Below, piece after piece: positions 11,028 through 40,510 of a DNA stretch of 64,000 bases. The DNA is from a virus (taxonomy: Duplodnaviria > Heunggongvirae > Uroviricota > Caudoviricetes > Demerecviridae): IMG/VR virus record IMGVR_UViG_2757320985_000001; one strand, given 5' to 3'. The position numbers and the translations under genes are program-made. The notes below the pieces were generated by a model. The model ran no database searches, was not told the origin of the DNA, and was given only the letters and a program-made list of their open reading frames with translations. How positions within the stretch are numbered: position 1 is the first letter of the stretch; every line of letters starts with the position of its first letter.

Positions 11028-11627
11028 TTACACTTCTCCATGTTCTTCTGGATGTGGAGCTTGAGCTTTACTATATTGCTCTTTGCGATAATTCGCCAAA
11101 ATTTCAATACGCTTATTGATTTCTTTGCTGTTGAGGTAGATATTCTTATTCTCTTTTACCATGTCCTCGATCTCGTCAATAGAGAAGAACGGGAAGTAAA
11201 CATCGAGCATCATATCTTCTACAAACTGGTTGTAAGATTCATAGGCTTTCTTGATTTCTTGACCTTTCTCACAGAATCCGCCAGAGAACGTATGTCCCAT
11301 AAGCGTAGCATGTGGATGTACAACCCAACCATGGCAAGACAGGAAGATTGTGCAGTAAGCAGAAGCACTAGGACCGAGCAGGTGTCCAATAACCGTTCCA
11401 CGACAGTTAGCGATTAGGTTAGATAGTTGTGCAGCAGTATCAACGTAACCACCAGGCCCATTAATCATCAGATTAATTTCATCATCTTCACCAGCCTGCA
11501 TCAGTATCATGGATAGGTCACGATACTCATCCGGTGAGCCTAATTCTTCATCAAAGAAAAAGGTATATTCGTTAGATTGGCGAACAGTGTGAAACAGGTT
11601 AGTCTTTTCTTCTTTCTTATTAGTCAT
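11028..11627 (-). CDS. ClpP-like serine peptidase (S14 family)
   Basis: INGPGG ... GPSAS(A) ... MGHTFSGG aligns to the ClpP INSPGG/GQAASM/MIHQPLGG catalytic-triad context. Confidence 0.65.
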   Translation of the reverse strand: MTNKKEEKTNLFHTVRQSNEYTFFFDEELGSPDEYRDLSMILMQAGEDDEINLMINGPGGYVDTAAQLSNLIANCRGTVIGHLLGPSASAYCTIFLSCHGWVVHPHATLMGHTFSGGFCEKGQEIKKAYESYNQFVEDMMLDVYFPFFSIDEIEDMVKENKNIYLNSKEINKRIEILANYRKEQYSKAQAPHPEEHGEV

Positions 11628-17955: not shown

Positions 17956-17956
17956 A

Positions 17957-20111: not shown

Positions 20112-20129
20112 AAGGTTTTCCTTATTAGT

Positions 20130-20219: not shown

Positions 20220-20226
20220 AGTTGTT

Positions 20227-20573: not shown

Positions 20574-20580
20574 ATTTTAT

Positions 20581-20799: not shown

Positions 20800-20818
20800 A
20801 TTATTTCCTTAATTTGTT

Positions 20819-20894: not shown

Positions 20895-20899
20895 GAATT

Positions 20900-20978
20900 T
20901 GGTGGAGAATAAGAGATTCGAACTCTTCTGATATCCTCGGTGCAAGCGAGGTGTCCACTCCAAGCAGACCCATTCCCC
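20900..20978 (-). tRNA. tRNA, 79 nt, anticodon loop CTTGCAC (UGC), also with G3:U70
   Basis: Acceptor GGGGAAT/ATTCTCC, T-arm AAGAG-TTCGAAT-CTCTT, anticodon stem CCTCG/CGAGG. Looks like a second Ala-type tRNA. D-arm unclear. Confidence 0.4.
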
Positions 20979-21184
20979 AAAATCTTTAAGTTTACTAAGG
21001 CTATTAGCTCGGTGTGCGTATTACCCTCAGACATTAGCCAGTAGAGGATAACCGCTCTTCACAAACCCGATACACTATTCAGTTGCCGCTGAATCTAGTG
21101 GACTAGTCTAGAACTTCTCCCGAGTCGTAGGGATCGTGCTTTTTGGCAGCCAGTCCTGGGTCGAGCTAATACCTTAGTGAACTT

Positions 21185-21245
21185 TGATGAGGATTTCTCC
21201 TCATCAATTTATATAAATATTATAACAAGAAATTAAGCATCAAGC
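21185..21245 (-). promoter_or_regulatory. early promoter cassette driving a non-coding leader and a tRNA sub-operon
   Basis: Family member. No ORF downstream, only non-coding RNA and the tRNAs at 20819-20978. Confidence 0.5.
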
Positions 21246-21599
21246 AAGTACATTTTTAGCGATTTCTTGTATTTCCTTAACGTCACTAACGAAAAGGTAA
21301 TCAGAGCTTCCAGAGTGCATACTCTGCATAACCACACCATCCTCTGGTGCATCTTCTTTCAGTGTGATACCTAACCAGAACTCGGCAAAACTAGGTGTTA
21401 CCTCACCTTGACTTGCCTTGAATACATCGGCTTCTGTAATCTCTTGACCAGTGGAGAGTCCCATGTATGGTACGTTCAGATCAATATCTTTGTAGAATTC
21501 AGCTAGATCTTGTTCGAAGTCCCAACCTTTAGAGATAGCGAACTCCATTGTTACATGACCGAAATAGCCTTGAACCTTGCTTGATAATTGCATTTGCAA
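21240..21599 (-). CDS. hypothetical protein, 119 aa
   Basis: ORF track. Confidence 0.5.
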   Translation of the reverse strand: MQMQLSSKVQGYFGHVTMEFAISKGWDFEQDLAEFYKDIDLNVPYMGLSTGQEITEADVFKASQGEVTPSFAEFWLGITLKEDAPEDGVVMQSMHSGSSDYLFVSDVKEIQEIAKNVLA

Positions 21600-21618
21600 T
21601 TCCTTATTTTGAGTTAAT

Positions 21619-21692
21619 TGGTACTCGGTGATAGAATCGAACTATCGCAACCGCCGTGTAAAGACGGGGTTCTCCCATTAAACTAACCGAGC
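21619..21692 (-). tRNA. tRNA-Val (UAC)
   Basis: Acceptor GCTCGGT/ACCGAGT, T-arm GATAG-TTCGATT-CTATC, loop TTTACAC. Confidence 0.55.
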
Positions 21693-21825
21693 AAAAGACG
21701 TCCTATAATATAGGCTTCAACTACAAATTCACAGAAACCTGCTAAAAACATACCTATTGTAAAATCGGCAGAGAATACATAGGAATCTTTTATTTTCTGC
21801 TTCATTAAGTAAAACCAGATAGTCA

Positions 21826-22143
21826 TTAAAATCTCTCCATTCTAAAGCCAATGAAGTAAGGTGCATTACATGGAACATGCTTAAGATCTTTAAGAGTAAT
21901 TTTACGTCCTAAGCGTCGTTCCATACAAGTGAAACATAGAACAATATCTTTGGGCTGCTCTTTTCTTATCTGATCCCAGACCCAATCTTCAACCATACAC
22001 ATTTCATGGTATTGTTCACAGTCTCGACAATAATGACACTGATGTTCTGGTACTTTTTGATTTTTAATACACAGTTCAGTAAAGCGTTTTCCGGCTCTGC
22101 CAGACATTTCTGATATTGTTTCTAGAACTTTGTTAATATTCAT
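21826..22143 (-). CDS. Cys-rich hypothetical protein, 105 aa
   Basis: HQCHYCRDCEQYHEMC ... CFTC motifs (Zn-binding-like). Confidence 0.5.
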   Translation of the reverse strand: MNINKVLETISEMSGRAGKRFTELCIKNQKVPEHQCHYCRDCEQYHEMCMVEDWVWDQIRKEQPKDIVLCFTCMERRLGRKITLKDLKHVPCNAPYFIGFRMERF

Positions 22144-22160
22144 AACAAATTCCTTTAAAT

Positions 22161-22239
22161 TGGTAGACCGCCTGGGACTCGAACCCAGAACCTTCCGGTT
22201 AAAAGCCGGGTGCTGCTAAACCAATTGAGCTAGCGATCT
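22161..22239 (-). tRNA. tRNA-Lys (UUU)
   Basis: T-arm CTGGG-TTCGAGT-CCCAG. Anticodon loop CTTTTAA, identical to enterobacterial tRNA-Lys. Confidence 0.55.
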
Positions 22240-22427
22240 ATTTAATACATGTATACTTCTTTAATAGAGTAAACTTTTAAGTAAGGATGATTAATACCAA
22301 ATTCCGCCATCACTTCGTTTTCATCTTTACCGTAATGGGCTAGTGGATACTTCTTACGATCTTTGCTAGATCGCAGGTCACTTACTTTTAAACGAAATAA
22401 TTTCATTTCGAAATCCTTCTATTAAAT

Positions 22428-22504
22428 TGGAAGCGGGTGCAGGAATCGAACCTACCTCTTTCTAGCTTATGAGACTAGCGATCTCTGCCAGAGATCTAAC
22501 CCGC
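22428..22504 (-). tRNA. tRNA anticodon CAU (Met; 1:72 mismatch, possibly initiator-like)
   Basis: T-arm GTAGG-TTCGATT-CCTGC. Anticodon stem CTAGT/GCTAG with loop CTCATAA. Acceptor GCGGGT/ACCCGC. Confidence 0.45.
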
Positions 22505-22511
22505 AATTGTT

Positions 22512-22588
22512 TGGTCTCCAATGAAGGACTCGAACCTTCAACCCCACCGCCCCAAACGGTGTACTCTAGCCAATTGAGCTAATCGGAG
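22512..22588 (-). tRNA. tRNA-Pro (UGG)
   Basis: Acceptor CTCCGAT/ATTGGAG, T-arm GAAGG-TTCGAGT-CCTTC, anticodon stem CACCG/CGGTG with loop TTTGGGG. Confidence 0.55.
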
Positions 22589-23119
22589 AATATTATCTTT
22601 TTAACCATAGTAAGGATAGACCTAACATGGTGAACCCAGTACCCAGCCCAATACTTTTCTCTATGAAATTGAAGGTATCAGTATTGACTGCTGTAATTAG
22701 TATAGGTATAGACCATACTACCATAAATACTTGAGCTATCTTATATTTCATTTTGCTTTCCTTCTCAACACTTTATAAGATATATTATACAGAGAATTAA
22801 GCGAAATAGCAAATGAGTTTTTAATAAATTTACTTATTGCGTAGGCCACCTCACGCTTCAAACGCTCTGCTGACAAAGAAGTTTGCGAGACTTCTCTTAA
22901 ATGCCAGAATAGACCCGCCGATCTATCGGAACCTACTCAATAAGTAAACTTTCGTTTACTTACACTCCTGCGTTTCCATTGGGCCTCCAAAGAGGTATCC
23001 ACGACCTGTTATTCAGAAGATTTTACCACGTTGAACGGCCGGAACTCCGTGGCTTGTTTACTATCACCTTACGGACGCATAAGTTATTACACGAATGCGC
23101 AGGCTTGGTTTGATAGATT

Positions 23120-23195
23120 TGGTGCGGTCGGAGGGACTCGAACCCTCAACTTCTGGTTGGCAACCAAAAATTATACCTTTTAACTACGAACGCAT
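23120..23195 (-). tRNA. tRNA-Gly (GCC)
   Basis: T-arm GAGGG-TTCGAGT-CCCTC. Acceptor GCGTTCG/CGACCGC (one mismatch). Loop TTGCCAA. Confidence 0.45.
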
Positions 23196-23199
23196 AATA

Positions 23200-23331
23200 A
23201 GTCAATCTAGGCAGGACTTGAACCTGCTATCACTTGTGCGGATTTACGAGAACCATTCTTTCACTCGAATCGAACGAGCTTCTACCCTCGGCAAGCTGGT
23301 GTCCCCTCTCCACCACGCTAGAATGTTTAAT
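23200..23331 (-). pseudogene. tRNA-like remnant(s) with two T-arm-like hairpins (CTCG-TTCGATT-CGAG and GCAGG-TTCAAGT-CCTGC) and no complete cloverleaf
   Basis: Manual fold failed to find acceptor partners. Confidence 0.3.
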
Positions 23332-23409
23332 TGGTACACCTGCTGAGATTCAAACTCAGGATCTTCCGATTAAGAGTCGGTTGCTTTAAATCAACTAAGC
23401 TACAGATGC
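23332..23409 (-). tRNA. tRNA-Lys (CUU)
   Basis: Acceptor GCATCTG/CAGGTGT, T-arm CTGAG-TTTGAAT-CTCAG, loop CTCTTAA. Confidence 0.5.
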
Positions 23410-23949
23410 ATTTATATCTTTATAGGACTTACCAGTCAGTCTTGTATAGCGTTTTCGCAGACCATTATCTGACATGCCCAATTCTCTAGAAGCTCTAGAC
23501 CATGAGTAATTTTTAACCCAGTACTCTATTTGTTCTACAGTAATTTCTTGTGGATTTTGACAGTGCTGTTTGCAGTAACTAGCTCTTTTAGCTATTTCTT
23601 TGTTGCAAATAGGACAGAAATTTTTATCTGAACTTAATCCACGTTCTTCTATAGTTTTGAGAATATGATCAGCTTTACTTCGTACAATCAGATTTTCAAG
23701 AGAGAAATTTAGTTTGTTTGTATCATCATGATCTACTTCTAAGTCAGAACTCAAAGATGGTAGATCTTTGTATACTCTCGCTAATACTCTGTGTAATAGA
23801 AGATGTTTTGATTTTCCATTATGTTGAACAGTAAAGAAAGGATACCCAGAAGTATTAATCTGTATTGAAAGTATACGATTAACTTTAGTACTAAATACTT
23901 CCCCAGTCTCACTTATTAAGTATTCTGGATATTCGGGTATTTCTTTCAT
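23395..23949 (-). CDS. HNH-family homing endonuclease (HNH_3 core with C-terminal HTH)
   Basis: GYPFFTVQHNGKSKHLLLHRVLARVY core. C-terminal WVKNYSWSRASRELGMSDNGLRKRY helix-turn-helix. Embedded in the tRNA array. Confidence 0.7.
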   Translation of the reverse strand: MKEIPEYPEYLISETGEVFSTKVNRILSIQINTSGYPFFTVQHNGKSKHLLLHRVLARVYKDLPSLSSDLEVDHDDTNKLNFSLENLIVRSKADHILKTIEERGLSSDKNFCPICNKEIAKRASYCKQHCQNPQEITVEQIEYWVKNYSWSRASRELGMSDNGLRKRYTRLTGKSYKDINASVA

Positions 23950-23966
23950 TACTGTTCCTTATAATT

Positions 23967-24043
23967 TGGCGCGACCGATGGGATTCGAACCCACATTCTC
24001 TCCCGTGACAGGGGAGTACCATTACCAAGCCAGCCCCGATCGC
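23967..24043 (-). tRNA. tRNA-Asp (GUC)
   Basis: Acceptor GCGATCG/CGGTCGC, T-arm GTGGG-TTCGAAT-CCCAT, anticodon stem CTCCC/GGGAG with loop CTGTCAC. Confidence 0.6.
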
Positions 24044-24052
24044 ATAATTTAT

Positions 24053-24238
24053 TTACTCAGCTTTGAGTTTTTCGATAGCTTCCTCAACCTCTTTTAGAGC
24101 TTCACGATAACGATTCAAGTTATGTAGTTCTTCCAGAAGATCAGCCTTCTGAGTTTCTACCCAACGTTCACGAACCTTAATGTTGTTTTTAATATTATCA
24201 CGATCAGCTTCTAGTCGAGCAATTGCATGAGTTGTCAC
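24053..24238 (-). CDS. coiled-coil small protein, 61 aa
   Basis: ORF track. Confidence 0.4.
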   Translation of the reverse strand: MTTHAIARLEADRDNIKNNIKVRERWVETQKADLLEELHNLNRYREALKEVEEAIEKLKAE

Positions 24239-24265
24239 ATCTATTTCCTCAGTTATTAATGAAAT

Positions 24266-24348
24266 TGGCGGGCCGTGTAGGATTCGAACCTACGTTGTCT
24301 TTCAACATGGATTAACAGTCCACCGCCAAACCGCTTGGCTAACGACCC
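24266..24348 (-). tRNA. tRNA, 83 nt, anticodon loop CTGTTAA (GUU, Asn-type) but with a 13-14-nt extra arm
   Basis: Acceptor GGGTCGT/ACGGCCC, T-arm GTAGG-TTCGAAT-CCTAC, anticodon stem GTGGA/TCCAT. Variable hairpin GTTG-AAAGA-CAAC. Confidence 0.5.
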
Positions 24349-24355
24349 TAAAATT

Positions 24356-24431
24356 TGGACGACCGCATGAGATTCGAACTCACATAAGGAGGTTTTGCAG
24401 GCCTCCGCCTAAGCCATTCAGCCAACGGTCG
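24356..24431 (-). tRNA. tRNA-Cys (GCA)
   Basis: Acceptor CGACCGT/GCGGTCG, discriminator U. Loop CTGCAAA. Confidence 0.55.
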
Positions 24432-24609
24432 ATTTATCTTGTTTTTCGAGATCAACGAACTCTAAATCGTTGAAGTCTCCTAGAGTACGGGAGTAATAAC
24501 CGTCTCCAGCATCATAGCCTGATTTACCACACTTACACATCTTAAACTCACGTAGACGTGTAAAGATATGTTCAGAACCACAACACTTAAATTTAACTAA
24601 CTTTTTCAT
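24418..24609 (-). CDS. Zn-ribbon small protein, 63 aa
   Basis: KCCGSEH ... CKCGK cysteines. 3' end overlaps the tRNA-Cys 5' region by a few nt. Confidence 0.4.
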   Translation of the reverse strand: MKKLVKFKCCGSEHIFTRLREFKMCKCGKSGYDAGDGYYSRTLGDFNDLEFVDLEKQDKSTVG

Positions 24610-24848
24610 TTAACACGCTCCGGTAAATCTTCTAGTTTATATTGAGTAGCCACATTAGCAGCATCTAATAATAAACCCATGTGTTTAAGAATCCTAGTGA
24701 TAGCCTCGCCTTCTGCTTCTTCTACAAAGCAACGTAGATTAACGAAGTCAATACCACCATCCATACCAGAGAAAATGTTTAGTAAGCGAAGCATTACCAG
24801 CTTACGTTCTTTCAATTCTTGTTCTGTCATGTTGCTTCTCCAGTTCAA
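24606..24848 (-). CDS. hypothetical protein, 80 aa
   Basis: ORF downstream of the promoter cassette at about 24845-24900. Confidence 0.5.
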   Translation of the reverse strand: MNWRSNMTEQELKERKLVMLRLLNIFSGMDGGIDFVNLRCFVEEAEGEAITRILKHMGLLLDAANVATQYKLEDLPERVK

Positions 24849-24880
24849 TTTATGTAATAATTATACAGAACTTTAAGCGG

Positions 24881-25168
24881 TTAAGCAACTACATTTTTCA
24901 GAAATATGATGCCTTTCTTTTTCTTCTTATATTTCCACGTTAACGGGTTCTGTCGATTATGAACGCTTGAGATCTTTGTCTCGTCAAAGTTCTTCAATAC
25001 CATGTAATCACAGGCCAACTGTTCTAGTGGGATGTGATCTCCGTCAAAAGCATAAACATAAGGCTGTTGACTAGCACGATAATGATAGACTTTGTTAATT
25101 CTGCGTTTCAGTGACTTATCCGCACAGTAAATAAAGAAGTTTTCAGGATGCATCAGCATCTCCTTCAA
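24881..25168 (-). CDS. hypothetical protein, 95 aa
   Basis: ORF track. Confidence 0.45.
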   Translation of the reverse strand: MKEMLMHPENFFIYCADKSLKRRINKVYHYRASQQPYVYAFDGDHIPLEQLACDYMVLKNFDETKISSVHNRQNPLTWKYKKKKKGIIFLKNVVA

Positions 25169-25170
25169 AT

Positions 25171-25245
25171 TGGTGCACCCCGTTGGTAACGATCCAACCT
25201 CTCAAGCTCTTCAGGCAAGCGCTAATCCATCTCAGCTAAAGGTGC
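25171..25245 (-). tRNA. tRNA-like gene with a non-canonical T-loop (ATCGTTA) and an irregular anticodon arm
   Basis: Acceptor GCACCTT/GGGGTGC, discriminator A, CCA encoded, D-stem GCTG/TAGC. The anticodon stem only forms 4 bp, with loop GCCTGAA. Confidence 0.35.
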
Positions 25246-25251
25246 AAATAT

Positions 25252-25327
25252 TGGCAAACCTACTAGGACTCGAACCTAGACCGTACGGTTTTGGAGACCG
25301 ACATGCTGTCCAGTAACACTCTAGGAA
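25252..25327 (-). tRNA. tRNA-Trp (CCA), acceptor stem imperfect
   Basis: T-arm CTAGG-TTCGAGT-CCTAG. Anticodon loop CTCCAAA, identical to E. coli tRNA-Trp. Discriminator G. The acceptor 5' strand could not be paired cleanly. Confidence 0.4.
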
Positions 25328-25336
25328 TGCAGAAAT

Positions 25337-25413
25337 TGGCGTCCTGTGCGGGGATCGAACCCGCAAATCCTACCTTGAAAGGGTAGTGACTTTACCAGTT
25401 TGTCTAACAGGAC
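25337..25413 (-). tRNA. tRNA-Glu (UUC)
   Basis: Perfect acceptor GTCCTGT/ACAGGAC, T-arm GCGGG-TTCGATC-CCCGC, anticodon stem CTACC/GGTAG with loop CTTTCAA. Confidence 0.65.
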
Positions 25414-25423
25414 TTAAATTTGA

Positions 25424-25511
25424 TGTTGGATGATGGAGTCGAACCACCCGAGACCCTTCCGAGTCGGCAGATTTACAGTCTGCTTCGCTACCTCTACGAT
25501 ACTAATCCAAC
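25424..25511 (-). tRNA. tRNA-Tyr (GUA), class II
   Basis: 88 nt. Perfect acceptor GTTGGAT/ATCCAAC. Anticodon stem GCAGA/TCTGC with loop CTGTAAA. Long variable arm. CCA not encoded. Confidence 0.6.
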
Positions 25512-25637
25512 ATATTTGAATGAAAAGTAAGTCGGTTAAACTCAAGGTGGAATATTTCAGGAAATCCTGACTTTACCCCTAAAAGCAACTCGCTTAGTTA
25601 CTTCTCATTCAGATATGTTTTCCAAATTAGATAACTA

Positions 25638-25675
25638 TTATATCAAGTTTTGCAGGACTGAGCAAGTCAAATTTT
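25638..25675 (-). promoter_or_regulatory. candidate tRNA-operon promoter (TTGCTC-17-TATAAT)
   Basis: Minus-strand reading: GACTTGCTCagtcctgcaaaacttgaTATAAT, upstream of tRNA-Tyr/Glu/Trp. Confidence 0.4.
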
Positions 25676-25701
25676 AAAGAACTTGCTCAGTGCTATATCA
25701 G

Positions 25702-25977
25702 TTACTCGAAGCTAGGAGTGACACTCAGTTTGAATGGAAGCTCGAACACTTCTTCATAATCATCATTGAGCGTAATTACACGACCTTCTAGCTTAGTCAT
25801 GGTGATTTCGATATCAGCCTTTGCATCAGGAGCCATACCAGCTTCCACACATTTAGCTTTAACTTCCGGCAGAAGTTCTACATCGTAGAAATAAAGCCAT
25901 TCAATCTCACCTTCCCAGCCACCCCAGGATTTACAAACAGCACTTTCAACACCAGTTGCAGTAACACGTTTTGACAT
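25702..25977 (-). CDS. hypothetical protein, 91 aa
   Basis: ORF downstream of the promoter cassette at about 25980-26040. Confidence 0.5.
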   Translation of the reverse strand: MSKRVTATGVESAVCKSWGGWEGEIEWLYFYDVELLPEVKAKCVEAGMAPDAKADIEITMTKLEGRVITLNDDYEEVFELPFKLSVTPSFE

Positions 25978-26067
25978 TCGTTAACTCCTTCATCAATTTA
26001 TATAACTATTATAGCAGAAATCTTAAGTAAAAAGCAAGTACATTTTTAAAATTTCTGCTTGGAGGAG

Positions 26068-26274
26068 TTAAACTCCTGATTCTTCTGCCAGATCAAGCCC
26101 AACCAATGTGATTGCCATAATAGCCGCGCCATGTTCTTTCTCTCCTAGCTCTTTGGCTTGAGTGAGAATATTTAGGAACTGCTTTTGAAAATCTGCAACT
26201 TCTTCTGTCATGCCTGCTTCAGCAATAATTCCTTTCAGCATAAAGCGTTGTGCCGTAATTTCAGGATTAGCCAT
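26068..26274 (-). CDS. hypothetical protein, 68 aa
   Basis: ORF track. Confidence 0.45.
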   Translation of the reverse strand: MANPEITAQRFMLKGIIAEAGMTEEVADFQKQFLNILTQAKELGEKEHGAAIMAITLVGLDLAEESGV

Positions 26275-26425
26275 TTATTATCTCCAGTTATTTAGAATGT
26301 AAGCCAAACTTAGGATCATAGCGATCGTAAGTCGTACCATTAGTTGAAGCCTTGATGTTATGAAAACGACAGTACATAAATTTACGTAGTGCTTTCTTAA
26401 TAGCTTTCATTTTATTTCCTTAATT

Positions 26426-26502
26426 TGGTAGGGGTGGTGGGATTCGAACCCACAAAACCTGAATTTTAAGTCCAGTACCTATGCCAATTCGATTACACCC
26501 CC
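26426..26502 (-). tRNA. tRNA, 77 nt, anticodon UAA (Leu-type) but class-I architecture
   Basis: Acceptor GGGGGTG/CACCCCT, discriminator A, T-arm GTGGG-TTCGAAT-CCCAC. Anticodon stem CTGGA/TTCAG with loop CTTAAAA. 5-nt variable loop. Confidence 0.5.
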
Positions 26503-26594
26503 ATGTAATCAGTTTATCAGTTGATATAAGTTGTAGCCCAGCGAAAATCCTACTACTAGCCCTACAAACCAACCAATATAATAATCTTTTAGTT

Positions 26595-26942
26595 TCATAG
26601 TTCATAACCCTGAATGTATCGAGCAAAACCAGTAATTTCAAACTGAATTGCCCAAACTACTTCCATATGTTCAATCTTCTCAAACCGAGCATCAGATTGC
26701 TCTAGGAAATAACGAGAGATTGTAGGAAATTCAATGTCGAAATCTTCCTTATCCATGCCATAGTAGAACTTTTCAGGAATATTACGAACTTCACGGAAGA
26801 AATCCTCGATCTGAAAATCCATTAGAGGATGTGTAACTTCCTCTTTGCTATCATCCGTCTGGAAGAAGCGGAAATGCACAAGGCAAGAGCCAATCAGGTT
26901 TATTGCTGGTGTAGTATAGATATCCATCTTAGCCTCGCTCAA
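26595..26942 (-). CDS. hypothetical protein, 115 aa
   Basis: ORF track. Confidence 0.5.
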   Translation of the reverse strand: MSEAKMDIYTTPAINLIGSCLVHFRFFQTDDSKEEVTHPLMDFQIEDFFREVRNIPEKFYYGMDKEDFDIEFPTISRYFLEQSDARFEKIEHMEVVWAIQFEITGFARYIQGYEL

Positions 26943-27114
26943 TATCTAGAGAAATACCACATTTAGGATTAATACCAGAACCATTACAATGTGTACAAAC
27001 GTATGTATTATACCATGTATCCCCGGGTTCAGCATCGTTCCATTCACCTGCTCCAAAGCATTTTGGACAGGCACACTCTTCTAGTTCCTGCTTCATTTCA
27101 TAGAATCTAGACAT
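26929..27114 (-). CDS. Zn-ribbon small protein, 61 aa
   Basis: CPKC ... CTHC motifs. Confidence 0.45.
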   Translation of the reverse strand: MSRFYEMKQELEECACPKCFGAGEWNDAEPGDTWYNTYVCTHCNGSGINPKCGISLDIERG

Positions 27115-27131
27115 ATAGTATCCTAGTTAAT

Positions 27132-27209
27132 TGGTGGCTCCCGGAGGATTCGAACCTACCTACCTTTCGCTTATGAGGCGACGGCTCATACCAAATGAGC
27201 TTGAGAACC
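27132..27209 (-). tRNA. tRNA anticodon CAU (third CAU tRNA; Met or Ile2)
   Basis: Acceptor GGTTCTC/GGGAGCC, T-arm GTAGG-TTCGAAT-CCTCC, loop CTCATAA. Confidence 0.5.
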
Positions 27210-27214
27210 AAATT

Positions 27215-27308
27215 TGGAGGAAGATGCCAGATTCGAACTGGCACACCGTGTCTCCACAGCTACTGGCTGTTTAGCAAACAGCTCCCTTACCTTTAGGGTT
27301 AATCTTCC
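27215..27308 (-). tRNA. tRNA-Ser (GCU), class II
   Basis: 94 nt. Perfect acceptor GGAAGAT/ATCTTCC, T-arm GCCAG-TTCGAAT-CTGGC, anticodon stem GCTGT/ACAGC with loop TTGCTAA. Long variable arm. Confidence 0.65.
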
Positions 27309-27359
27309 GAATTTATGAATATATTATACAGAAAATTTCGGCATTAAGCAAGTGAAATT

Positions 27360-27674
27360 TTACTGAACATTGCACTGATATACTTGTTTGATACGTGTCA
27401 CTGACTTCTTAGTTGGGTTGATAGAAGAACCCTGCCACCAACGTGATTCTGAGCTGAGAACAGCCCCAGGAACAGCTTGTTCTTTTGGCAGAACAATATC
27501 AAAACACTGTTCACCCATATTATCTTTAATGTGCGACCAAATGTCTAGAGTAAATCGTTCTAGCTTATTACAAACTTGAACTTGACAAAGTTCCTGTTGT
27601 GGAGCAGCAAATACAGAAGTAGATACTAGAGTCAATGCAAGTACAATGCGTTTCATGTTTGATTCCTCTCTCAA
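27360..27674 (-). CDS. secreted hypothetical protein, 104 aa
   Basis: Signal peptide (LALTLVSTSVFAAP) and 4 Cys. Promoter cassette lies upstream at about 27660-27725. Confidence 0.5.
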   Translation of the reverse strand: MREESNMKRIVLALTLVSTSVFAAPQQELCQVQVCNKLERFTLDIWSHIKDNMGEQCFDIVLPKEQAVPGAVLSSESRWWQGSSINPTKKSVTRIKQVYQCNVQ

Positions 27675-27725
27675 ATTTATAAATATATTATACAGAAATT
27701 TTCTATATAAAGCAAGTGAAAATTT
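27666..27725 (-). promoter_or_regulatory. early promoter cassette
   Basis: TTGCTT at 27710-27715 (RC), TGTATAAT at 27687-27694 (RC), GAGAGG leader. Confidence 0.6.
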
Positions 27726-27762
27726 CTGTATAATAGCCCTCGCTTAGAGGGCTATAACTACT

Positions 27763-28455
27763 TTATTTGTTAACTCTTACAAAGTAGCCTTTATAGGCTC
27801 CCATAATAGAGTTACCTAAGAACACCAGCCACATTGCTAGGATTGCATAGGAAGCACCCGTAGATTGGGCAGTTACAAGCCAAATGTACACAGTGCCAAT
27901 GTTAATAGCAATCCAGATCAGCCACTGTTCAGCGTACTGCTTAACCATAAGCCACATAGCAATCACACTACCGACCGCAGTAAATGCATCCAACATTGGG
28001 AATGGATCAGCTGTGGTAGCAAGGAAGCTGCCGTAACCTAAAGTAGCTACTGCTAGAACCCCTAGAGTCAGCAAAGCTTGAGCTTTGGTCAGAATCTTAG
28101 TTGGAACATCTGGCAGATTACTTGGCTTATTTTTATGCCATAAGTACATTCCATAAAACTGCATAGGAACGTAGTATAGTAGGTTTAGTGCAGCGTTACC
28201 ATAAAGATCTGCGTTTAAAGCTGTAATACCATATGTAAGAACACCCACTAAGCCCCAAATATAGTTGGAAACACGTCCTTTTGCAACCAGAATAACACAA
28301 ACCACATTGGTTATTGCAGTAGCCCAATCTAGAGCTGTACCATTATAGTTTGCTAAACTAATAAAGGCGACTGCTATAAACAGCCACAGATATTCCAAAG
28401 GTTTCCAGTTTTTAAAGTCATTTACAAGATAGTTAGTCATATTAAAACTCTCCAA
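27763..28455 (-). CDS. pnuC: nicotinamide riboside transporter PnuC
   Basis: 230-aa polytopic membrane protein with PnuC-like helices. Lies immediately downstream of the NadR-like gene and overlaps its end. Confidence 0.65.
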   Translation of the reverse strand: MESFNMTNYLVNDFKNWKPLEYLWLFIAVAFISLANYNGTALDWATAITNVVCVILVAKGRVSNYIWGLVGVLTYGITALNADLYGNAALNLLYYVPMQFYGMYLWHKNKPSNLPDVPTKILTKAQALLTLGVLAVATLGYGSFLATTADPFPMLDAFTAVGSVIAMWLMVKQYAEQWLIWIAINIGTVYIWLVTAQSTGASYAILAMWLVFLGNSIMGAYKGYFVRVNK

Positions 28456-29548
28456 CGTTAAAGTGATGAATCAGCCAGTCTACTGCGTTTACTGCTTCGT
28501 CCATACGAACTTTGTAGTCCGGGGAGTCGATGTAAACAGTACGCCCTTCAGGGAACTGATTTGGAAATTCTTTCTTCATCTGCTCGAACAGTTCAGAAGT
28601 AATTGAACGATCGGAGTTAATACGTAAACCATCATCTACCCACTTAACAGTAGGCGCTAGAACAATTACTAAATCGTAATGTTCTTCTTTTGCAATTGCT
28701 GTAACCACAGGATTCTTACGATGTTCATAAAGTCTGTGGTAGAACTCAGTAATAAAAGCATTTGTATCCACAAACATGATCTTATTTGCAGTACGTTCTG
28801 CTTCAAACTCTAGCTCTTTGTGTCTGAACGCAATTTTACTATAATCTTCACTGGTAAGCAGATTTTCGTTACCAACTAGATCAACTTCACAATACGTTCG
28901 GCCATATTCTTCTACCCACGAAGTGTTGTATAGCTTCGCAAGGTATTTTGTTAAAGTAGTCTTTCCCGAGCTTTCAGTCCCAATGATTACAACCTTACGC
29001 ACGTAATCTTTACGAACTACGCTAGGAAGAAACTCCCAATACTTCATAAGATCATTACGAATCATTGTAGCTGAGATTGGAACACGAGTACGATCAGAAT
29101 CTACAATATAATGACCAAACTTCGGCAGATATTTCTTATATTCTGCATCATAGTCTAGTTCGCTAGAGAAAATGGTGATCTCAGGCAAATGTCCGTAATT
29201 TTCATTAAGGATTCTAGCATATTCCGGCCAACCATTCGGATATTCAGGAATATCATCTTCAATAATGTACTCTACCGAAACGTGCTCAATATCCGCGTAA
29301 GTTTGTTCTAACCAACGAAGTCGATTCTTTAACTGTAATACTTCCTGATCACGTGTGTTCTGCTTATCCAGCCAACGATTATCATGACTAACTACAACAA
29401 TAACTCGTTCACACATAGTTGCTGCTGTGTTTATTAGGTTAATATGACCACGCGTTAATGGTGCGAACTTACCAATTACTAGACCAGTCTTAATCATATT
29501 TGATTCCTCTCTCAAATTTATAAATATATTATACAGAGAATTTAGCAT
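28442..29548 (-). CDS. nadR: bifunctional NMN adenylyltransferase / ribosylnicotinamide kinase (NadR-like, no HTH)
   Basis: N-terminal nucleotidyltransferase with GKFAPLTRGH (HxGH-type motif). C-terminal P-loop kinase (GTESSGKTTL). Confidence 0.7.
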   Translation of the reverse strand: MLNSLYNIFINLREESNMIKTGLVIGKFAPLTRGHINLINTAATMCERVIVVVSHDNRWLDKQNTRDQEVLQLKNRLRWLEQTYADIEHVSVEYIIEDDIPEYPNGWPEYARILNENYGHLPEITIFSSELDYDAEYKKYLPKFGHYIVDSDRTRVPISATMIRNDLMKYWEFLPSVVRKDYVRKVVIIGTESSGKTTLTKYLAKLYNTSWVEEYGRTYCEVDLVGNENLLTSEDYSKIAFRHKELEFEAERTANKIMFVDTNAFITEFYHRLYEHRKNPVVTAIAKEEHYDLVIVLAPTVKWVDDGLRINSDRSITSELFEQMKKEFPNQFPEGRTVYIDSPDYKVRMDEAVNAVDWLIHHFNVGEF

Positions 29549-29570
29549 TCAAGCAATCGAATTTTTAAAC

Positions 29571-29647
29571 TTTTTAGTGGAAAATCGCAGGGCACTTAAG
29601 GGTAGCAGGTGAGTGGTGAGGTCCAGAAATTGTTACCCCACTAAAAA
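29571..29647. repeat. Perfect 10-bp inverted repeat (TTTTTAGTGG / CCACTAAAAA) enclosing 57 nt
   Basis: Seen directly. Lies between the nadR start and the TTGACA promoter of the plus-strand island. Confidence 0.5.
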
Positions 29648-29672
29648 TCCGGGGGCAATTTTTAAAGACCCC

Positions 29673-29701
29673 TTGACATTTTCGCTGGGGTAGTGTAAAG
29701 T
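29673..29701 (+). promoter_or_regulatory. sigma70-consensus promoter: TTGACA, 17-bp spacer, TAAAGT
   Basis: TTGACAttttcgctggggtagtgTAAAGT. The -35 context TTGACATTTTCGC is shared with the promoter at 59241. Confidence 0.55.
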
Positions 29702-29762
29702 ATATGTTATGGATGAGTGATCAAAGAGACACACATTTTCTATATACTAGGAGGTGTCAAAA

Positions 29763-30749
29763 ATGACAGATGAAGTAACTAAGAAACCTGAGACCGTAAG
29801 TGAAGTCGCAGCAGAACTGAGACGTCATGAGGAATCAGACAAACATAAGTGGGAGAAGGTCAAAGCCTACGAAAAAGAACATCGTGAACACGATGAAGAT
29901 GATGAAGAAGATGACGATGATGAACATTGTCATAAACATGGAAAACATAAAATGCAAGAACCAGTAAACGTATTCACTAGTGGCTTCCCTGGCCTAATGG
30001 GTGGTTACCCAGCAGTTGCTAACGGTGCTTTCGGTGGTGAAGGTATGGGTCTATTCGGAGCTATCTTAATCGGTGCTCTATTAACAGGCGGATTCGGTGG
30101 TTTCGGTGGTTTTGGCCGCGGTGCTGGTGTTGCCGCTGAGGGAACTGCTGTGGACGCGATCCTTTCTAACCAGGATACTGCAAGTATTCTAGCTGCAATT
30201 AACACTGCTCGTACTGAAGCGAATCAAGGTACTGGTGCTGTTCTGAGCGCTGTTAATGGTGTAGGTGCTGCTCAAGCTTCTAGTACTCAACAGATTCTGA
30301 CTACTGTGTATGGTACTGGTGCTAACCTGTCCAACCAGATCTGTCAGGAGACTCGTAACGTTATTCAGGGTCAGTTTGATCTTTCTCGCCAGATGGATCA
30401 AGCTTTCGCTGCTAACCAGATCGCTCGTGCACAAGACAAGTTTGACTCTGCTCAGATTGCTTTCCAGCAGTCTCTTCAGACCAATAACCAGTTTGCCGCT
30501 GTTCAGGCTCAGATGTGCGCTAACCAGAACGCTATCGAACGTCAGCTTGCTGAGTGCTGCTGTGAACTTCAGACTGCGATCGCTGGTGTAACTACTGCGC
30601 GTATCCAGGACGAACTGAACGAATGCCGTCTGCGTGAAGCAATCGCTGCAGGTAGCGGTGCAAATGGTCAGGTAATCAACCAAATCGCTGTAAGCCTGGG
30701 TGCAATTACTCAGACTCTAGCAGCTCTACAGGCTAAAGTACCAGCCTAA
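29763..30749 (+). CDS. Gly/Ala/Gln-rich protein with an acidic/His N-terminus and a GFGG hydrophobic segment
   Basis: ATG at 29763 with an AGGAGG RBS (the ORF-track start at 29754 is GTG). Host-like codon usage. Function unknown. Confidence 0.6.
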   Translation: MTDEVTKKPETVSEVAAELRRHEESDKHKWEKVKAYEKEHREHDEDDEEDDDDEHCHKHGKHKMQEPVNVFTSGFPGLMGGYPAVANGAFGGEGMGLFGAILIGALLTGGFGGFGGFGRGAGVAAEGTAVDAILSNQDTASILAAINTARTEANQGTGAVLSAVNGVGAAQASSTQQILTTVYGTGANLSNQICQETRNVIQGQFDLSRQMDQAFAANQIARAQDKFDSAQIAFQQSLQTNNQFAAVQAQMCANQNAIERQLAECCCELQTAIAGVTTARIQDELNECRLREAIAAGSGANGQVINQIAVSLGAITQTLAALQAKVPA

Positions 30750-30771
30750 TCTTTAAGGGGAGGAGCCCATT

Positions 30772-31200
30772 ATGAGTAAATATGGTTTTGTGAACAACGG
30801 ATTTAATCAACCAATGGGCTCCCAGCAGCCCATTCCGGGTCTGGATAACCCCTACTTACAACAGTTGCAACAGCGTTTAGCAGAAGCGCAACAGATGCAG
30901 CAGCAACTTCAGCAAAACCCTGGAAGTGTGAGCCCTATGCAAATGATGCAGCAAATGAGTGGGCAGTCGCAAATGCCTCAACAAATGCCTCAACAAATGC
31001 AGCAACAGGTGCCACAGCAGCAAGTTCAGCAACAAACCCAACAACCGCAGGTATCTGCGGAAGGACAGGCAGTACTAGCCCTTTTCGAAGACTTCGCAAA
31101 GACAGAGGACGGGAAACAGCTTGTATCACTTATGGGTAAGTTTAATAGCTTCTGCCAAAGCCAAGTTGCAAAAGCTCAAAATGGTGGTAATAACTCCTAA
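30772..31200 (+). CDS. Q-rich (prion-like) low-complexity protein, 142 aa
   Basis: QQMPQQMPQQMQQQVPQQQVQQQTQQPQ tract. GGAGG RBS. Confidence 0.55.
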   Translation: MSKYGFVNNGFNQPMGSQQPIPGLDNPYLQQLQQRLAEAQQMQQQLQQNPGSVSPMQMMQQMSGQSQMPQQMPQQMQQQVPQQQVQQQTQQPQVSAEGQAVLALFEDFAKTEDGKQLVSLMGKFNSFCQSQVAKAQNGGNNS

Positions 31201-31209
31201 GGAGGAATT

Positions 31210-31404
31210 ATGTGTTGCAGAAAATCTGTTTCGTGCTGCCCAATGCCTGTAGCACGTTGTTGCTCTCCAGCAATGTTTACGCAAATACCGGTGTTCAATC
31301 CGTTTGCCTTTAAGCCTACTCTTATCCTGCCCCCTAGAGTAGATTTTCAGTCAAGATTGGTCTCCCGTATGGGTGGTTGCTGTACACCGAGAGTATGGTT
31401 CTAA
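31210..31404 (+). CDS. Cys-doublet small peptide, 64 aa
   Basis: Four CC doublets (MCC, SCC, RCC, GCC). AGGAGG RBS. Followed by a terminator. Confidence 0.5.
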   Translation: MCCRKSVSCCPMPVARCCSPAMFTQIPVFNPFAFKPTLILPPRVDFQSRLVSRMGGCCTPRVWF

Positions 31405-31407
31405 ACC

Positions 31408-31445
31408 AAAAACAAAAGCCCCTGCCGAAAGGTAAGGGGCTTTTT
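31408..31445 (+). terminator. rho-independent terminator (GCCCCTGCC-GAAAG-GTAAGGGGC then TTTTTC)
   Basis: Hairpin plus U-run seen directly after the 31404 stop. Confidence 0.65.
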
Positions 31446-31457
31446 CTTTTGCCTTAA

Positions 31458-31497
31458 ATACAGAAAAGCCCGCGCTCTCGGAGGAAACGCGGGCTTG
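31458..31497 (-). terminator. hairpin terminator (GCCCGCG ... CGCGGGC) after the minus-strand SPFH gene
   Basis: Inverted repeat seen directly. Convergent with the preceding terminator. Confidence 0.5.
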
Positions 31498-31519
31498 GTT
31501 CGAAGATTACGTGTAACTA

Positions 31520-32464
31520 TTACTTGTTACGCATATCCATGATCATTTGACCATCGTAGCCAGTACCGACAACAGTCTGCGGCACACCACCTTGGTATTT
31601 TTCAGCACGAAGCATTTCAACTTCCAGCTGCTTCCAACGAATCATTTCAGGAGTAATAGTACGTTGCAGAGCGGCGTTAGCTTCAGCTTCTTTCTTAGCT
31701 GCGTACAGTTTAGCATCTGCGTCACGTTCGTTAGCTACTGCCATGTTTTCACGAGCGGAACGATCTGCCTCAGCTTGCTTAACTTTCTGCTGTGCTTCTT
31801 GTTCAACACGAGCCAGTTCAGCTTTTGCAGCGTTAACTTGTTCTTCACGAACTTTGGTGTTCTGTACCTGTTCCATGATTACCGGTGGCAGAGTAATATC
31901 CTGAAGGAATACTTGCTTAACGGTGTAACCATAAGGACGCGCATACTCCTCTACTTCTTGCTGAATAGCAGTTTGCAGTTGAGCCTGAATCTTAGCGTCG
32001 AACAGATCTTGTGCTTTTGGTACAGACTTACCAAACTCACGAATCGTAGATAGCATCTTCTCTTCAACGTACTTGTTCAGAGCTTGATCCTGAGTACCTG
32101 CGTTAACACGGTTCATAGGAGCTTTAGCACCATCAAACTGCAACATAACGGTAATGTCAACTGTAGACTTAAACTTATCCTGGCTAGGAACCTGAAGTTT
32201 ATCCAGTTTCATAGAAATATCTTTCGTACTAAAAGTATCAAAAGAGGCGAATGGGTTGACAATATGGAACCCCGGCAATACAGGATTAGGACTAACTTTA
32301 CCCAGGAAAGTCTGAGTTTTAACCGTACCGTCCTGAACAACTGTATAGGAATTGAGAGCCAGAATAAGAGCGCCAAGACCAACTACAGCACCAACACCCC
32401 AACGTTTAATAGTACGAATTACTTTTTGATCGGAAGTCAGTTCTTTAGTGTTTTTAGTAAACAT
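31520..32464 (-). CDS. SPFH/band-7 (HflK/C-prohibitin-like) membrane protein
   Basis: N-terminal TM segment, SPFH core, and a long Ala/Glu/Gln-rich coiled-coil C-terminus. Confidence 0.6.
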   Translation of the reverse strand: MFTKNTKELTSDQKVIRTIKRWGVGAVVGLGALILALNSYTVVQDGTVKTQTFLGKVSPNPVLPGFHIVNPFASFDTFSTKDISMKLDKLQVPSQDKFKSTVDITVMLQFDGAKAPMNRVNAGTQDQALNKYVEEKMLSTIREFGKSVPKAQDLFDAKIQAQLQTAIQQEVEEYARPYGYTVKQVFLQDITLPPVIMEQVQNTKVREEQVNAAKAELARVEQEAQQKVKQAEADRSARENMAVANERDADAKLYAAKKEAEANAALQRTITPEMIRWKQLEVEMLRAEKYQGGVPQTVVGTGYDGQMIMDMRNK

Positions 32465-32475
32465 ATATTTCCTTA

Positions 32476-32676
32476 TTATTTAGAAGAGTTAGCTACTACA
32501 GTTACTTTAGTTGCAGAAATAAACAGGCTAGCATCCACAGCAAATTCAGGAGCTTTGATATCTCCGTTATGAAATATGACTATACCGGAGACTACTTCAA
32601 ATGCTAGCGCTGTAACATCGGTGGTATTTACTTGTGAATGTTCACCTACTACTTTTACTATATATCGTGTTTTCAC
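32476..32676 (-). CDS. NfeD-like small OB-fold protein (partner of the SPFH protein)
   Basis: 66-aa beta-rich protein encoded immediately upstream of the SPFH gene, as in bacterial nfeD-SPFH operons. Confidence 0.35.
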   Translation of the reverse strand: MKTRYIVKVVGEHSQVNTTDVTALAFEVVSGIVIFHNGDIKAPEFAVDASLFISATKVTVVANSSK

Positions 32677-32702
32677 TTTATTTTCCTAGCAGTTAATAAA
32701 AT

Positions 32703-32777
32703 TGGCCGAGGTGACAGGATTCGAACCTGCATAAAGGAATTTAGAAGACTCCTGCCTATCCCTTAGACTACACCCCG
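32703..32777 (-). tRNA. tRNA-Arg (UCU)
   Basis: Acceptor CGGGGTG/CACCTCG, T-arm GCAGG-TTCGAAT-CCTGT, anticodon stem GGAGT/ATTCC with loop CTTCTAA. Confidence 0.55.
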
Positions 32778-33299
32778 TTTAGGTATTTTTAAGAACTCTT
32801 ATAAAAGCTCTTAAAGATACCCGACGGTAGGTAGGATCAGCCCCCTCAGATTAAGCTCTGCAGCCCTTCCGTCAGACAATATCTTCCAGTTTAAGTCAGG
32901 GTGACTTTGTGGTTATGTTCTCCGTATGTGAAGAACTCGGTTAGGCTTAGGTCATGACTCCCAGCCTACTGCTGCCGCTCAACAGGAATTATCGCGAATT
33001 ACCTGTACTATTGGGCACCATTAGTGACATCTCTCATGTCAGCGTTTCCCACTCTCATATTCACGCGGTCTGTTAGAATCGCACCTCCGATTTTCGATGC
33101 GAAGCTGTATGCCTAGTCTCAGGTTAAACGGGGCACACACTAGGCAGTGATCCCGAGTTCCGAGTTTGGTTGAGGCCGTCAGGTTTCCTCGTGGTTTAGC
33201 TGTTTCGATTCTAACCTAATACTGATCAGGTGGCGTACCTCCTGAACCGTCATAGTATGTACTCCAGCAGCGAATGCTTATCCGGTATAAGCCCGAGTT

Positions 33300-38731: not shown

Positions 38732-39220
38732 TTACATCTCAGCAAGTTCTTGCTCAGTAATTACAGTATTGCATAGAGCATCAACTTCTTCATTACCACG
38801 AATACCTGAGTGACCTTTAACCTTAACAAAGGTTGGATTGGTATCATGGAAGTTAATATACTGTTGAGTTAGTTTAAATGCTTCTTGCCAGAGTTCTAGA
38901 TTAAGAGGAGTTTCACCATCTCCCTTCTTCCAGCCTTTCTTCTGCCAAGACCACATCCAGCTTTCCATACCATTTTTGCAGTAAGCAGAATCAGTGTAGA
39001 TAATTACTGGACGATTATCTTTCTTAGTAGACCAACGAAGAACTTCTACAATTGCAGTAAGTTCCATTTCGTTATTAGTAGTTTTAGGGCTGAAGCCAGA
39101 TTTAGAGCCAATACGATCATCATTATCATTATAGACAACGAATCCCCACGCACCTAAACCAGGATTGCCTTTACATGCACCATCTGTATATATGTGGAAA
39201 ACCGACATTATTTGCTCCAA
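38732..39220 (-). CDS. rnhA: ribonuclease HI
   Basis: HIYTDGACKGNPG ... ELTAI ... IYTDS ... motifs of RNase H1. Confidence 0.85.
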   Translation of the reverse strand: MEQIMSVFHIYTDGACKGNPGLGAWGFVVYNDNDDRIGSKSGFSPKTTNNEMELTAIVEVLRWSTKKDNRPVIIYTDSAYCKNGMESWMWSWQKKGWKKGDGETPLNLELWQEAFKLTQQYINFHDTNPTFVKVKGHSGIRGNEEVDALCNTVITEQELAEM

Positions 39221-39477
39221 TCAATTTCAAGCCAAAAACCTTCACGCTGTTCATACTTAGCTTCTACAACATAACCTAGTTTGCTAAGTTTTTGCATGAC
39301 GCTATTTCTAGCGTTTTCTGAGTATTCAGTTAATCCCTGGATGTGACAGTTAAATTCTTTATCTTTAATAGCTTTGTCAATCTCTACGGCAATAAGTGAT
39401 TCTAGGTCAATTACTTCCTTTTTAATGCTAGCAATAGTATTTTGTTTTGCTTCTAAAGCAGATAAAAGAATAGACAT
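39208..39477 (-). CDS. hypothetical protein, 89 aa
   Basis: ORF track. Confidence 0.45.
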   Translation of the reverse strand: MSILLSALEAKQNTIASIKKEVIDLESLIAVEIDKAIKDKEFNCHIQGLTEYSENARNSVMQKLSKLGYVVEAKYEQREGFWLEIDWSK

Positions 39478-39479: not shown

Positions 39480-40058
39480 TTATTCTCCAATTACTAAAAC
39501 ATCATGTTGAGAAGATACACCACACATATAATCTGCACAATGCGTAAAAGCCAGATCAATGATTTCAAATATATCATCTACATCTAAATCTGTGGCTCGA
39601 CAATCCGCAATAGCTAAACCTGTACGAATACTGGAAAGTACATCTTCTCCTCCACAGCCTACACCGGCATATTCAACTTCTAGAATAGAAGCATTAGATT
39701 GGAAAATAAAGATTCTTCCTTTGTAGAGCATAATAAATTGTCCCAGATTAGGTTCAGCATATTTTTCATTTTTCTTTTCGCCAAAATCTTTCTGGTTAAA
39801 CATATCACGTAATTTAGGTACTATTTCCGTATATAAATATTTATCATCAGAAATATCTGCTAAACGTGGTGGTACAGTAAAGCTATGCTCTAGTAATTGT
39901 CCCATGTAGAAGGAACTAGTGTATCCGAAGTACAAATCATCAGAGATTTTGAATACTTTCGGATTTTTAACCAGCAGTTTCGTATAGCCATTAGAACCCA
40001 TACGATCACCAGCTAAGTATACTTTATCTTTATATTTAAATGCTACTATGGCTGTCAT
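39480..40058 (-). CDS. HslV-like Ntn-hydrolase peptidase (proteasome beta-subunit homologue)
   Basis: N-terminus MTAIVAFKYKDKVYLAGDRMGSNGYT parallels HslV [25 protein letters not shown], with Thr as the first residue after Met. GVGCGG Gly-rich loop. Promoter cassette lies upstream at about 40065-40130. Confidence 0.55.
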   Translation of the reverse strand: MTAIVAFKYKDKVYLAGDRMGSNGYTKLLVKNPKVFKISDDLYFGYTSSFYMGQLLEHSFTVPPRLADISDDKYLYTEIVPKLRDMFNQKDFGEKKNEKYAEPNLGQFIMLYKGRIFIFQSNASILEVEYAGVGCGGEDVLSSIRTGLAIADCRATDLDVDDIFEIIDLAFTHCADYMCGVSSQHDVLVIGE

Positions 40059-40156
40059 TATTAAATCCTTCTGTCAAATTAGAAGTATATTATATTTGAA
40101 TTTCACTCAGTAAGCAAATGAAATTTAAATATAATAGCCCCGAAGGGCTATTTGAA

Positions 40157-40510
40157 TTAGATTATAATCAAGATTATTAGGGCGTATGTCAGATAATGCA
40201 GTAACTGATCAAATCCTAAAGCTATCCAAAACTTAGCATCGCTTATAGCGTATTTACAGCGTTGTGCTTTCCAATAATCTATAATAAAGTGTAGAATTAA
40301 TTCCATAATAGCTAAAGCTATAGACATTCCTGGTGATGTGAATAGGATTAGAATTGCAAATGTTAATCCAGCATGTACTAGCGAATGGGTTAATAATGGA
40401 AGTTTCCACCCTATTTTATGCGTCTTTCTTAGCATATATGGTGTTTGGAGTGGATAATCGGCCATAAAATGTTTTAGAAAGAATATGACAAATAATAGTA
40501 TAATTAACAT
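40157..40510 (-). CDS. membrane protein, 117 aa
   Basis: Multiple hydrophobic helices. Confidence 0.5.
   Translation of the reverse strand: MLIILLFVIFFLKHFMADYPLQTPYMLRKTHKIGWKLPLLTHSLVHAGLTFAILILFTSPGMSIALAIMELILHFIIDYWKAQRCKYAISDAKFWIALGFDQLLHYLTYALIILIII

Follow-up and report, generated by a model that had tools for sequence, protein, structure and literature searches.

A proteasome-family peptidase in an accessory insert of a T5-like phage: an HslV-like protein that is probably not an HslV orthologue

The 64,000-nucleotide stretch of viral DNA analysed here (IMG/VR record IMGVR_UViG_2757320985_000001; the window in what follows) belongs to a T5-like phage, a member of Epseptimavirus. It covers about positions 10,933–74,935 of NC_031933.1, and the region is 100% identical to the Salmonella phages 118970_sal2 and 100268_sal2. 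Our subject is a gene for a homologue of the proteasome-type peptidase HslV, which lies in a minus-strand block of early nucleotide-metabolism genes made up of RNase H, an open reading frame (ORF) of 89 amino acids (aa), the peptidase, DUF3307, ThyA, DHFR, NrdB/NrdA and PhoH. A preliminary description of this DNA had placed the peptidase ORF at exactly the coordinates that we find (39480–40058) and had quoted its N-terminus, MTAIVAFKYKDKVYLAGDRMGSNGYTKL, correctly; to this we add the strand, minus, which it did not give. As set out below, the product is almost certainly a proteasome-family N-terminal-threonine (Ntn) hydrolase with an intact active site, and it is probably not HslV in the strict sense.

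Phage T5 lacks the proteasome homologue and has rnh directly beside thy; the three genes that stand between these two in our phage (39208–40510, minus) are therefore an accessory insert (Table 1). The guanine-plus-cytosine (GC) content of the insert is 32–34%, versus 38–39% in the flanking core genes; the peptidase gene itself ranks at the 2nd percentile within the window. Close Epseptimavirus relatives carry differing subsets of the three genes: one has no DUF3307 gene, so that thyA lies directly beside the proteasome homologue, and at the locus of another, 95% identical, no match to the 89-aa ORF was found. Both neighbours were considered as partners of the peptidase and rejected, since neither is kept in close relatives.

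Table 1. Features of the peptidase locus and the ClpP-like gene, in window coordinates
Feature	Position	Strand	Details	Basis or remark
Proteasome/HslV-type coding sequence	39480..40058	minus	192 aa	ORF list, Pfam, PHROG, fold
89-aa ORF of unknown function	39208..39477	minus	PHROG 13270; GC 33%; 2-nt gap 3' of the peptidase gene	Insert gene
DUF3307 membrane protein	40157..40510	minus	Pfam; PHROG 2470 (moron/membrane protein); GC 32%; upstream	Insert gene
Shine-Dalgarno sequence	40066..40070	minus	AAGGA, 7 nt 5' of the ATG at 40058	Direct sequence reading
Candidate own promoter	40089..40117	minus	TTGCTT, 17-nt spacer, TATAAT	Read by eye
Hairpin	40136..40149	minus	AGCCC-TTCG-GGGCT, then a T-rich tract; 8 nt 3' of the DUF3307 stop	Read by eye
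ClpP-fold serine protease homologue	11028..11627	minus	Early region	Pfam CLP_protease, PHROG 1827

The preliminary description based its HslV-like reading on an ungapped N-terminal alignment with HslV. The register of that alignment holds, with Thr1, Gly16, Asp17 and Lys33 coinciding with those of E. coli HslV, but its pairwise significance does not: the two proteins share about 20% identity and BLASTP returns E = 11 for the segment. The alignment proves nothing by itself, and profiles and fold were required. The Pfam model PF00227 (Proteasome) scores 38.5 bits against the peptidase, above its curated cut-off of 22.4 (E = 1.2e-9), and aligns residues 2–189 to profile positions 5–188 of 189; PHROG 1040, 'peptidase HslV family', matches with E = 1.9e-21. 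When a profile of the family was compared with E. coli HslV by hhalign, the probability was 97.3% (E = 2.7e-11). A single-sequence phmmer search of the PDB gave marginal matches to 20S beta-7 subunits only (E about 0.01), and no PADLOC defence model matched the peptidase.

An AlphaFold2 model, built as a monomer only and on 18 homologues, reached a predicted local distance difference test score (pLDDT) of 89.7 and a predicted template modelling score (pTM) of 0.87. The modelled fold is the alpha-beta-beta-alpha Ntn sandwich with proteasome-beta topology: N-terminal strands, helices H1 (residues 50–59) and H2 (71–89), further strands, H3 (137–153), H4 (160–177) and a terminal strand (185–190), with no H5. 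A Foldseek search of the PDB with this model returned 1,164 matches at E ≤ 1e-3; the best 50 are all proteasome-family chains, and the best matches are HslV and BPH, with template modelling (TM) scores of 0.63–0.70. Both the predicted topology and the structural neighbours (HslV, BPH and 20S beta subunits) are those of an Ntn hydrolase, as the preliminary description had anticipated; on both counts that it had named and that were examined, HMM similarity and an Ntn fold, the outcome favours its reading.

Searching 1.84 billion representative sequences with the family profile recovered 6,704 relatives at E ≤ 1e-3, of which 836 remain at E ≤ 1e-30. Conservation was counted over 168 aligned relatives of about 25–40% identity, and invariance was also examined in 139 relatives. 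Six residues are invariant among the 168 (ORF numbering): Thr2, Asp18 and Lys34, which are Thr1, Asp17 and Lys33 in mature numbering and in register with HslV; Gly45, the equivalent of the oxyanion-hole Gly (Gly47 in 20S numbering); Gly106; and Gly134. The preliminary description was right to set the GVGCGG segment opposite the GSGG of HslV, as both the family profile and hhalign confirm, and Gly134-Cys135-Gly136 is the equivalent of Gly128-Ser129-Gly130. Gly136 is kept in 166 of the 168 relatives; the Ser129-equivalent residue is Cys in 104 of them, as it is in this protein, and Ser in 53. The Thr directly after Met, also pointed out earlier, occupies the nucleophile position that is invariant throughout the alignment (168/168). 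Since 160 of 167 relatives start with Met-Thr, the family has no propeptide; the encoded start of E. coli HslV is M/V-TTIV... Thr is a permitted penultimate residue for methionine aminopeptidase. The ratio of nonsynonymous to synonymous substitution rates (dN/dS) against two close relatives is 0.03–0.05, and the gene is under strong purifying selection. We regard it as all but certain that the peptidase is an active-site-intact member of the proteasome family of Ntn hydrolases, of the MEROPS T1 type.

Two further sequence features set the family apart. An invariant motif, GYTSSF[RY]MGQLL, is specific to it and missing from HslV. Cys is frequent both beside the nucleophile, where 132 of the 168 relatives start Thr-Cys, and at the position equivalent to Ser129; a redox or catalytic role is possible. 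In the T5-like branch, position 3 is Ala and Cys135 is retained.

The term HslV-like thus holds at the level of the superfamily, where PF00227, PHROG 1040, the fold and the catalytic set agree on an Ntn homologue, but not for HslV proper. In an NCBIfam scan at E ≤ 1 no HslV-named model scored, and the only matches were 20S_bact_beta (14.7 bits), archaeal proteasome beta (12.6) and D-alanine--D-serine ligase (12.3). By fold, BPH and 20S beta subunits are as close as HslV. We rejected HslV proper on these two grounds: as applied to this peptidase, 'HslV' is a superfamily label and not a statement of orthology. Among solved structures the family profile does match HslV best (3.6e-11), followed by BPH (2.8e-7) and bacterial 20S beta (7e-7). 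The HMMER match to HslV is split, however, into residues 1–48 and 104–176, skipping H1/H2 and the next loop, while that to BPH runs over the full length.

Compared feature by feature, the peptidase shares with HslV (ClpQ) the Met-Thr start without a propeptide, the register of Thr1, Asp17 and Lys33 and the G-S-G-G equivalent motif, and differs from it in having no hslU partner, a long loop after H2 and Cys for Ser in G-S-G. With BPH (PDB 5ovs/5ovu) it has in common that it stands alone without an unfoldase, that the loop after H2 is extended and that the profile alignment is full-length; in sequence, though, it resembles BPH less than HslV. The loop itself is highly acidic in BPH (PMC8665760), whereas in the peptidase it is a mixture of Lys and Glu (KDFGEKKNEKYAEPNLGQ). 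Relative to the rest of the family, the T5-like branch has 21 residues in this loop against a modal 18 in the compared region, and Tyr for Arg in GYTSSF[RY]MGQ.

The survey by Fuchs, Alva & Lupas (Bioinformatics 2021) added 22 new proteasome-like subfamilies, including 'group I' clusters that surround BPH and HslV (PMC8665760). Three members of group I, PPH, AAH and CPH, were found in phages, with no co-occurring AAA+ partner and no informative context (PMC8665760). The peptidase shows the similarity pattern of group I, being closest to HslV and BPH and nearer to beta subunits than to those of the alpha type. Within the group it resembles AAH, the alpha-proteobacterial and actinobacterial proteasome homologue (PMC8665760), in being a compact subunit of about 180 aa with H1–H4, without S12/H5 and without a propeptide, closest to HslV and BPH. 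It also resembles AAH in its distribution over Actinobacteria, alpha-proteobacteria, many phages and sporadic Firmicutes, with neither an AAA+ partner nor a conserved context. Size, topology and the taxonomy of the carriers all fit the published account of AAH, and the peptidase therefore most likely belongs to this cluster, whose reference sequence is WP_035979212; the match is to the published description. PPH, the proteasome homologue of phages and their hosts, is likewise phage- or prophage-borne, in group I and without a partner ATPase. It measures only about 140 aa and is without helix H2 (PMC8665760), and we rejected this assignment for a protein of 192 aa in which H2 is present and whose 158 related ORFs are all at least 169 aa long.

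These related ORFs, found at 158 loci, range from 169 to 325 aa. Among bacteria the family is carried mainly by Streptomyces, Azospirillum, Mesorhizobium, Devosia and Myxococcota and by a few Firmicutes (Brevibacillus, Paenibacillus, Oceanobacillus), and 367 viral contigs hold a relative. We clustered 7,836 ORFs from the 158 loci, which fall into 70 non-redundant groups, and found no conserved partner gene: no neighbour family occurs in more than 13 of the 70 groups. The commonest neighbours are the S78 prohead protease, portal, TerL (large terminase) and PhoH, and this recurrence of phage head genes indicates that many bacterial copies are prophage-borne. Around the Streptomyces copies there are neither phage genes nor conserved neighbours of any kind. 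Seven family members of 250–390 aa carry C-terminal extensions of 120–200 residues, in which no Pfam domain was found; the extensions might be targeting or interaction domains.

We therefore favour, with a probability of roughly 0.6, a stand-alone Ntn peptidase subunit of the group I that phages and prophages have spread, most likely AAH, and not an HslV orthologue. By analogy with E. coli HslV, host methionine aminopeptidase would remove Met1 and expose the amine and hydroxyl of Thr1 as the nucleophile. The subunits might then self-assemble, as those of HslV and BPH do, into a ring or double ring; HslV rings are 6-mers and BPH rings 7-mers. Such a particle could work during early infection as a peptidase that needs no ATP and acts on peptides or on unfolded or loosely structured proteins, with the 18-residue K/E-rich loop after H2, BPH-like rather than HslV-like, perhaps lining the entrance to the chamber. 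We give this mechanism of self-assembly and independence from an ATPase an even chance.

Several considerations weigh against this picture. The Cys at the Ser129-equivalent position may bear on catalysis, and activity is predicted from the conserved residues; the model is a monomer, from which the competence of the active site cannot be read; and the placement in AAH draws on size, topology and the taxonomy of the carriers. On their own, rings of the HslV type often show almost no activity unless an activator is present, and a host activator may therefore be needed here too. In the literature on phage HslV-like and proteasome-like proteins we found no experimental characterisation, only mentions in genome annotations and the 2021 bioinformatic survey.

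Whether a host unfoldase supplies what the phage lacks is the first alternative to be weighed. The preliminary description had seen no obvious cognate ATPase, and this proved correct for the whole phage genome: when E. coli HslU and ClpX were used as phmmer queries, neither the window nor the remaining genome yielded a homologue, and nor did the 6 kb on either side of the 158 loci. The ORF at 28442–29548, which gave a weak P-loop match, was rejected as an unfoldase because it encodes a NadR-like nucleotidyltransferase/kinase. No HslU-like gene was found in T5-like phages among phage records, and the Salmonella-labelled matches are host-type (95–97% identity). Given that the phage encodes no unfoldase, that its hosts Salmonella and E. 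coli possess HslU, that no solved structure matches the family profile better in sequence than HslV and that HslV alone is poorly active and requires the C-tails of HslU (PMC6429459), a hybrid protease can be imagined in which phage HslV-like rings dock on host HslU or another AAA+ unfoldase and redirect ATP-dependent proteolysis to substrates of the phage's choosing. The pocket that receives the HslU C-tail in HslV includes Phe54, Phe57, Lys80 and Gln114 (PMC6429459). The first three of these lie in the H1/H2 region that the match to HslV skips, which leaves docking on host HslU without support; nor is there positive evidence for the wider proposal made earlier of docking on host HslU, ClpX or ClpA. 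In hhalign, whose alignment is weak there, Phe54 is read as opposite a conserved aromatic residue, but Phe57 as opposite an invariant Gly. The position of HslV Lys28, which we take to contact the HslU C-terminal carboxylate (a literature search gave no paper mentioning this contact), is mostly hydrophobic in the family, with Lys in only 9 of the 168 relatives. Nor does any HslV-named NCBIfam model score; by fold HslV is no closer than BPH, which has no unfoldase, and in its length the loop after H2 resembles that of BPH and not that of HslV. Most relatives occur in hosts or contexts unlinked to hslU, and the family is common in Streptomyces; in Table 1 of Fuchs et al. HslV is unmarked under Actinobacteria (PMC8665760). 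We consider such a hybrid distinctly unlikely.

A more specialised enzyme is unlikely too, if less so: a monomer or small oligomer acting as a sequence-specific Ntn hydrolase or transpeptidase, as connectase does, or as an amidase, and processing a single phage or host protein or metabolite. The adjacency of many prophage copies to terminase, portal and prohead-protease genes would suit the processing of virion proteins, and the invariant GYTSSF[RY]MGQLL could form a specific binding site. The T5-like gene, however, sits among early nucleotide-metabolism genes, far from a head module that has its own maturation protease; the secondary structure of the model is missing the helical S3/S4 insertion of connectase, and the fold scores are far nearer to the ring-forming BPH, HslV and 20S beta than to connectase. 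That catalysis is irrelevant, the protein serving for example to titrate a host factor as a decoy or scaffold, or being the product of a decaying acquired gene, would agree with the absence of the gene from T5, for whose lifestyle it is dispensable, and with a low GC content that suggests recent acquisition. Against this stand the full catalytic set, invariant in 168 relatives despite their divergence, a dN/dS of 0.03–0.05 and a protein identical in more than 100 phage genomes, which make the idea scarcely credible. As to purpose, it is a long shot that the peptidase is a weapon of host takeover or counter-defence, which as a self-assembling ATP-independent chamber or as a hijacker of a host unfoldase such as HslU would selectively destroy a host regulator or anti-phage protein early in infection. 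If true, it would be the first functionally defined viral proteasome-type protease.

The situation is different in some jumbo Erwinia phages, among them Ea35-70, vB_EamM_Special G and Caitlin, which encode an HslU-like ATPase with 33–44% identity to E. coli HslU; a Special G protein (BFVD A0A191ZBV1) gives a weak proteasome-like fold match. Unlike the T5-like phages, these may carry true phage-encoded pairs of the HslVU type.

The preliminary description had paired the peptidase with a second self-compartmentalising protease, the ClpP-like protein encoded in the early region. That this protein is ClpP-like is borne out: the CLP_protease model reaches 30.8 bits, with its cut-off at 20.2, matching residues 41–137 only. 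The protein has an INGPGG motif, and its Ser and His stand opposite Ser111 and His136 of E. coli ClpP (precursor numbering), with the Asp of the triad unplaced. Equivalog models for ClpP fall well short of their cut-offs. The phage has a separate head maturation protease in the late capsid module, at 32260–32892 of locus L166, whose numbering is not that of the window. The pairing, on the other hand, is coincidental. The ClpP-like gene occurs in 1,305 phage records, including that of T5 (89% identity); T5 carries it without a proteasome homologue, and co-inheritance therefore gives no indication of a functional pair.

The peptidase gene has been annotated before. GenBank has listed the identical protein since phage EPS7 (ACB97546.1), and RefSeq, UniRef and single records give it names such as 'peptidase HslV family', 'ATP-dependent protease', 'proteasome subunit-like protein' and 'protease', and the family was described bioinformatically in 2021 (PMC8665760). 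As a discovery our analysis adds little; it refines the annotation in that the HslV label applies at the superfamily level and that docking on a host ATPase is unsupported. In the literature that we searched, phage-encoded proteasome homologues have no known substrate, oligomeric state or infection phenotype. Over 100 T5-like phages with sequenced genomes encode the identical protein; among them are E. coli K-12 phages from the BASEL collection such as IrmaTschudi, in which the region of the gene is essentially the same. A clean three-gene accessory insert that is absent from T5 offers a convenient genetic entry to the function of a stand-alone proteasome homologue.

Between the DUF3307 gene and the peptidase gene, the interval 40089–40149 (minus) looks like a terminator–promoter pair that would give the proteasome homologue a separate transcript. 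The GC-rich hairpin may be a terminator dividing the two genes, and the TTGCTT/TATAAT pair is a candidate for the peptidase gene's own promoter; both assignments come from reading the sequence by eye. A consensus scan for promoters and terminators called neither of them, and its yield was no richer than that from shuffled sequence; the promoter is missing from its list because the -35 element fits the consensus at only 3 of 6 positions. At the equivalent rnh–thy junction, phage T5 has an annotated promoter.

Elsewhere in the window, a PnuC-like nicotinamide mononucleotide transporter (PF04973) lies beside the gene for the NadR-like nucleotidyltransferase with an AAA_28 kinase (27763–29548, minus), the two forming a pair for the salvage of nicotinamide adenine dinucleotide. 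A cluster of 29 tRNA genes at 17798–32777, all on the minus strand, provides anticodons for all 20 amino acids.
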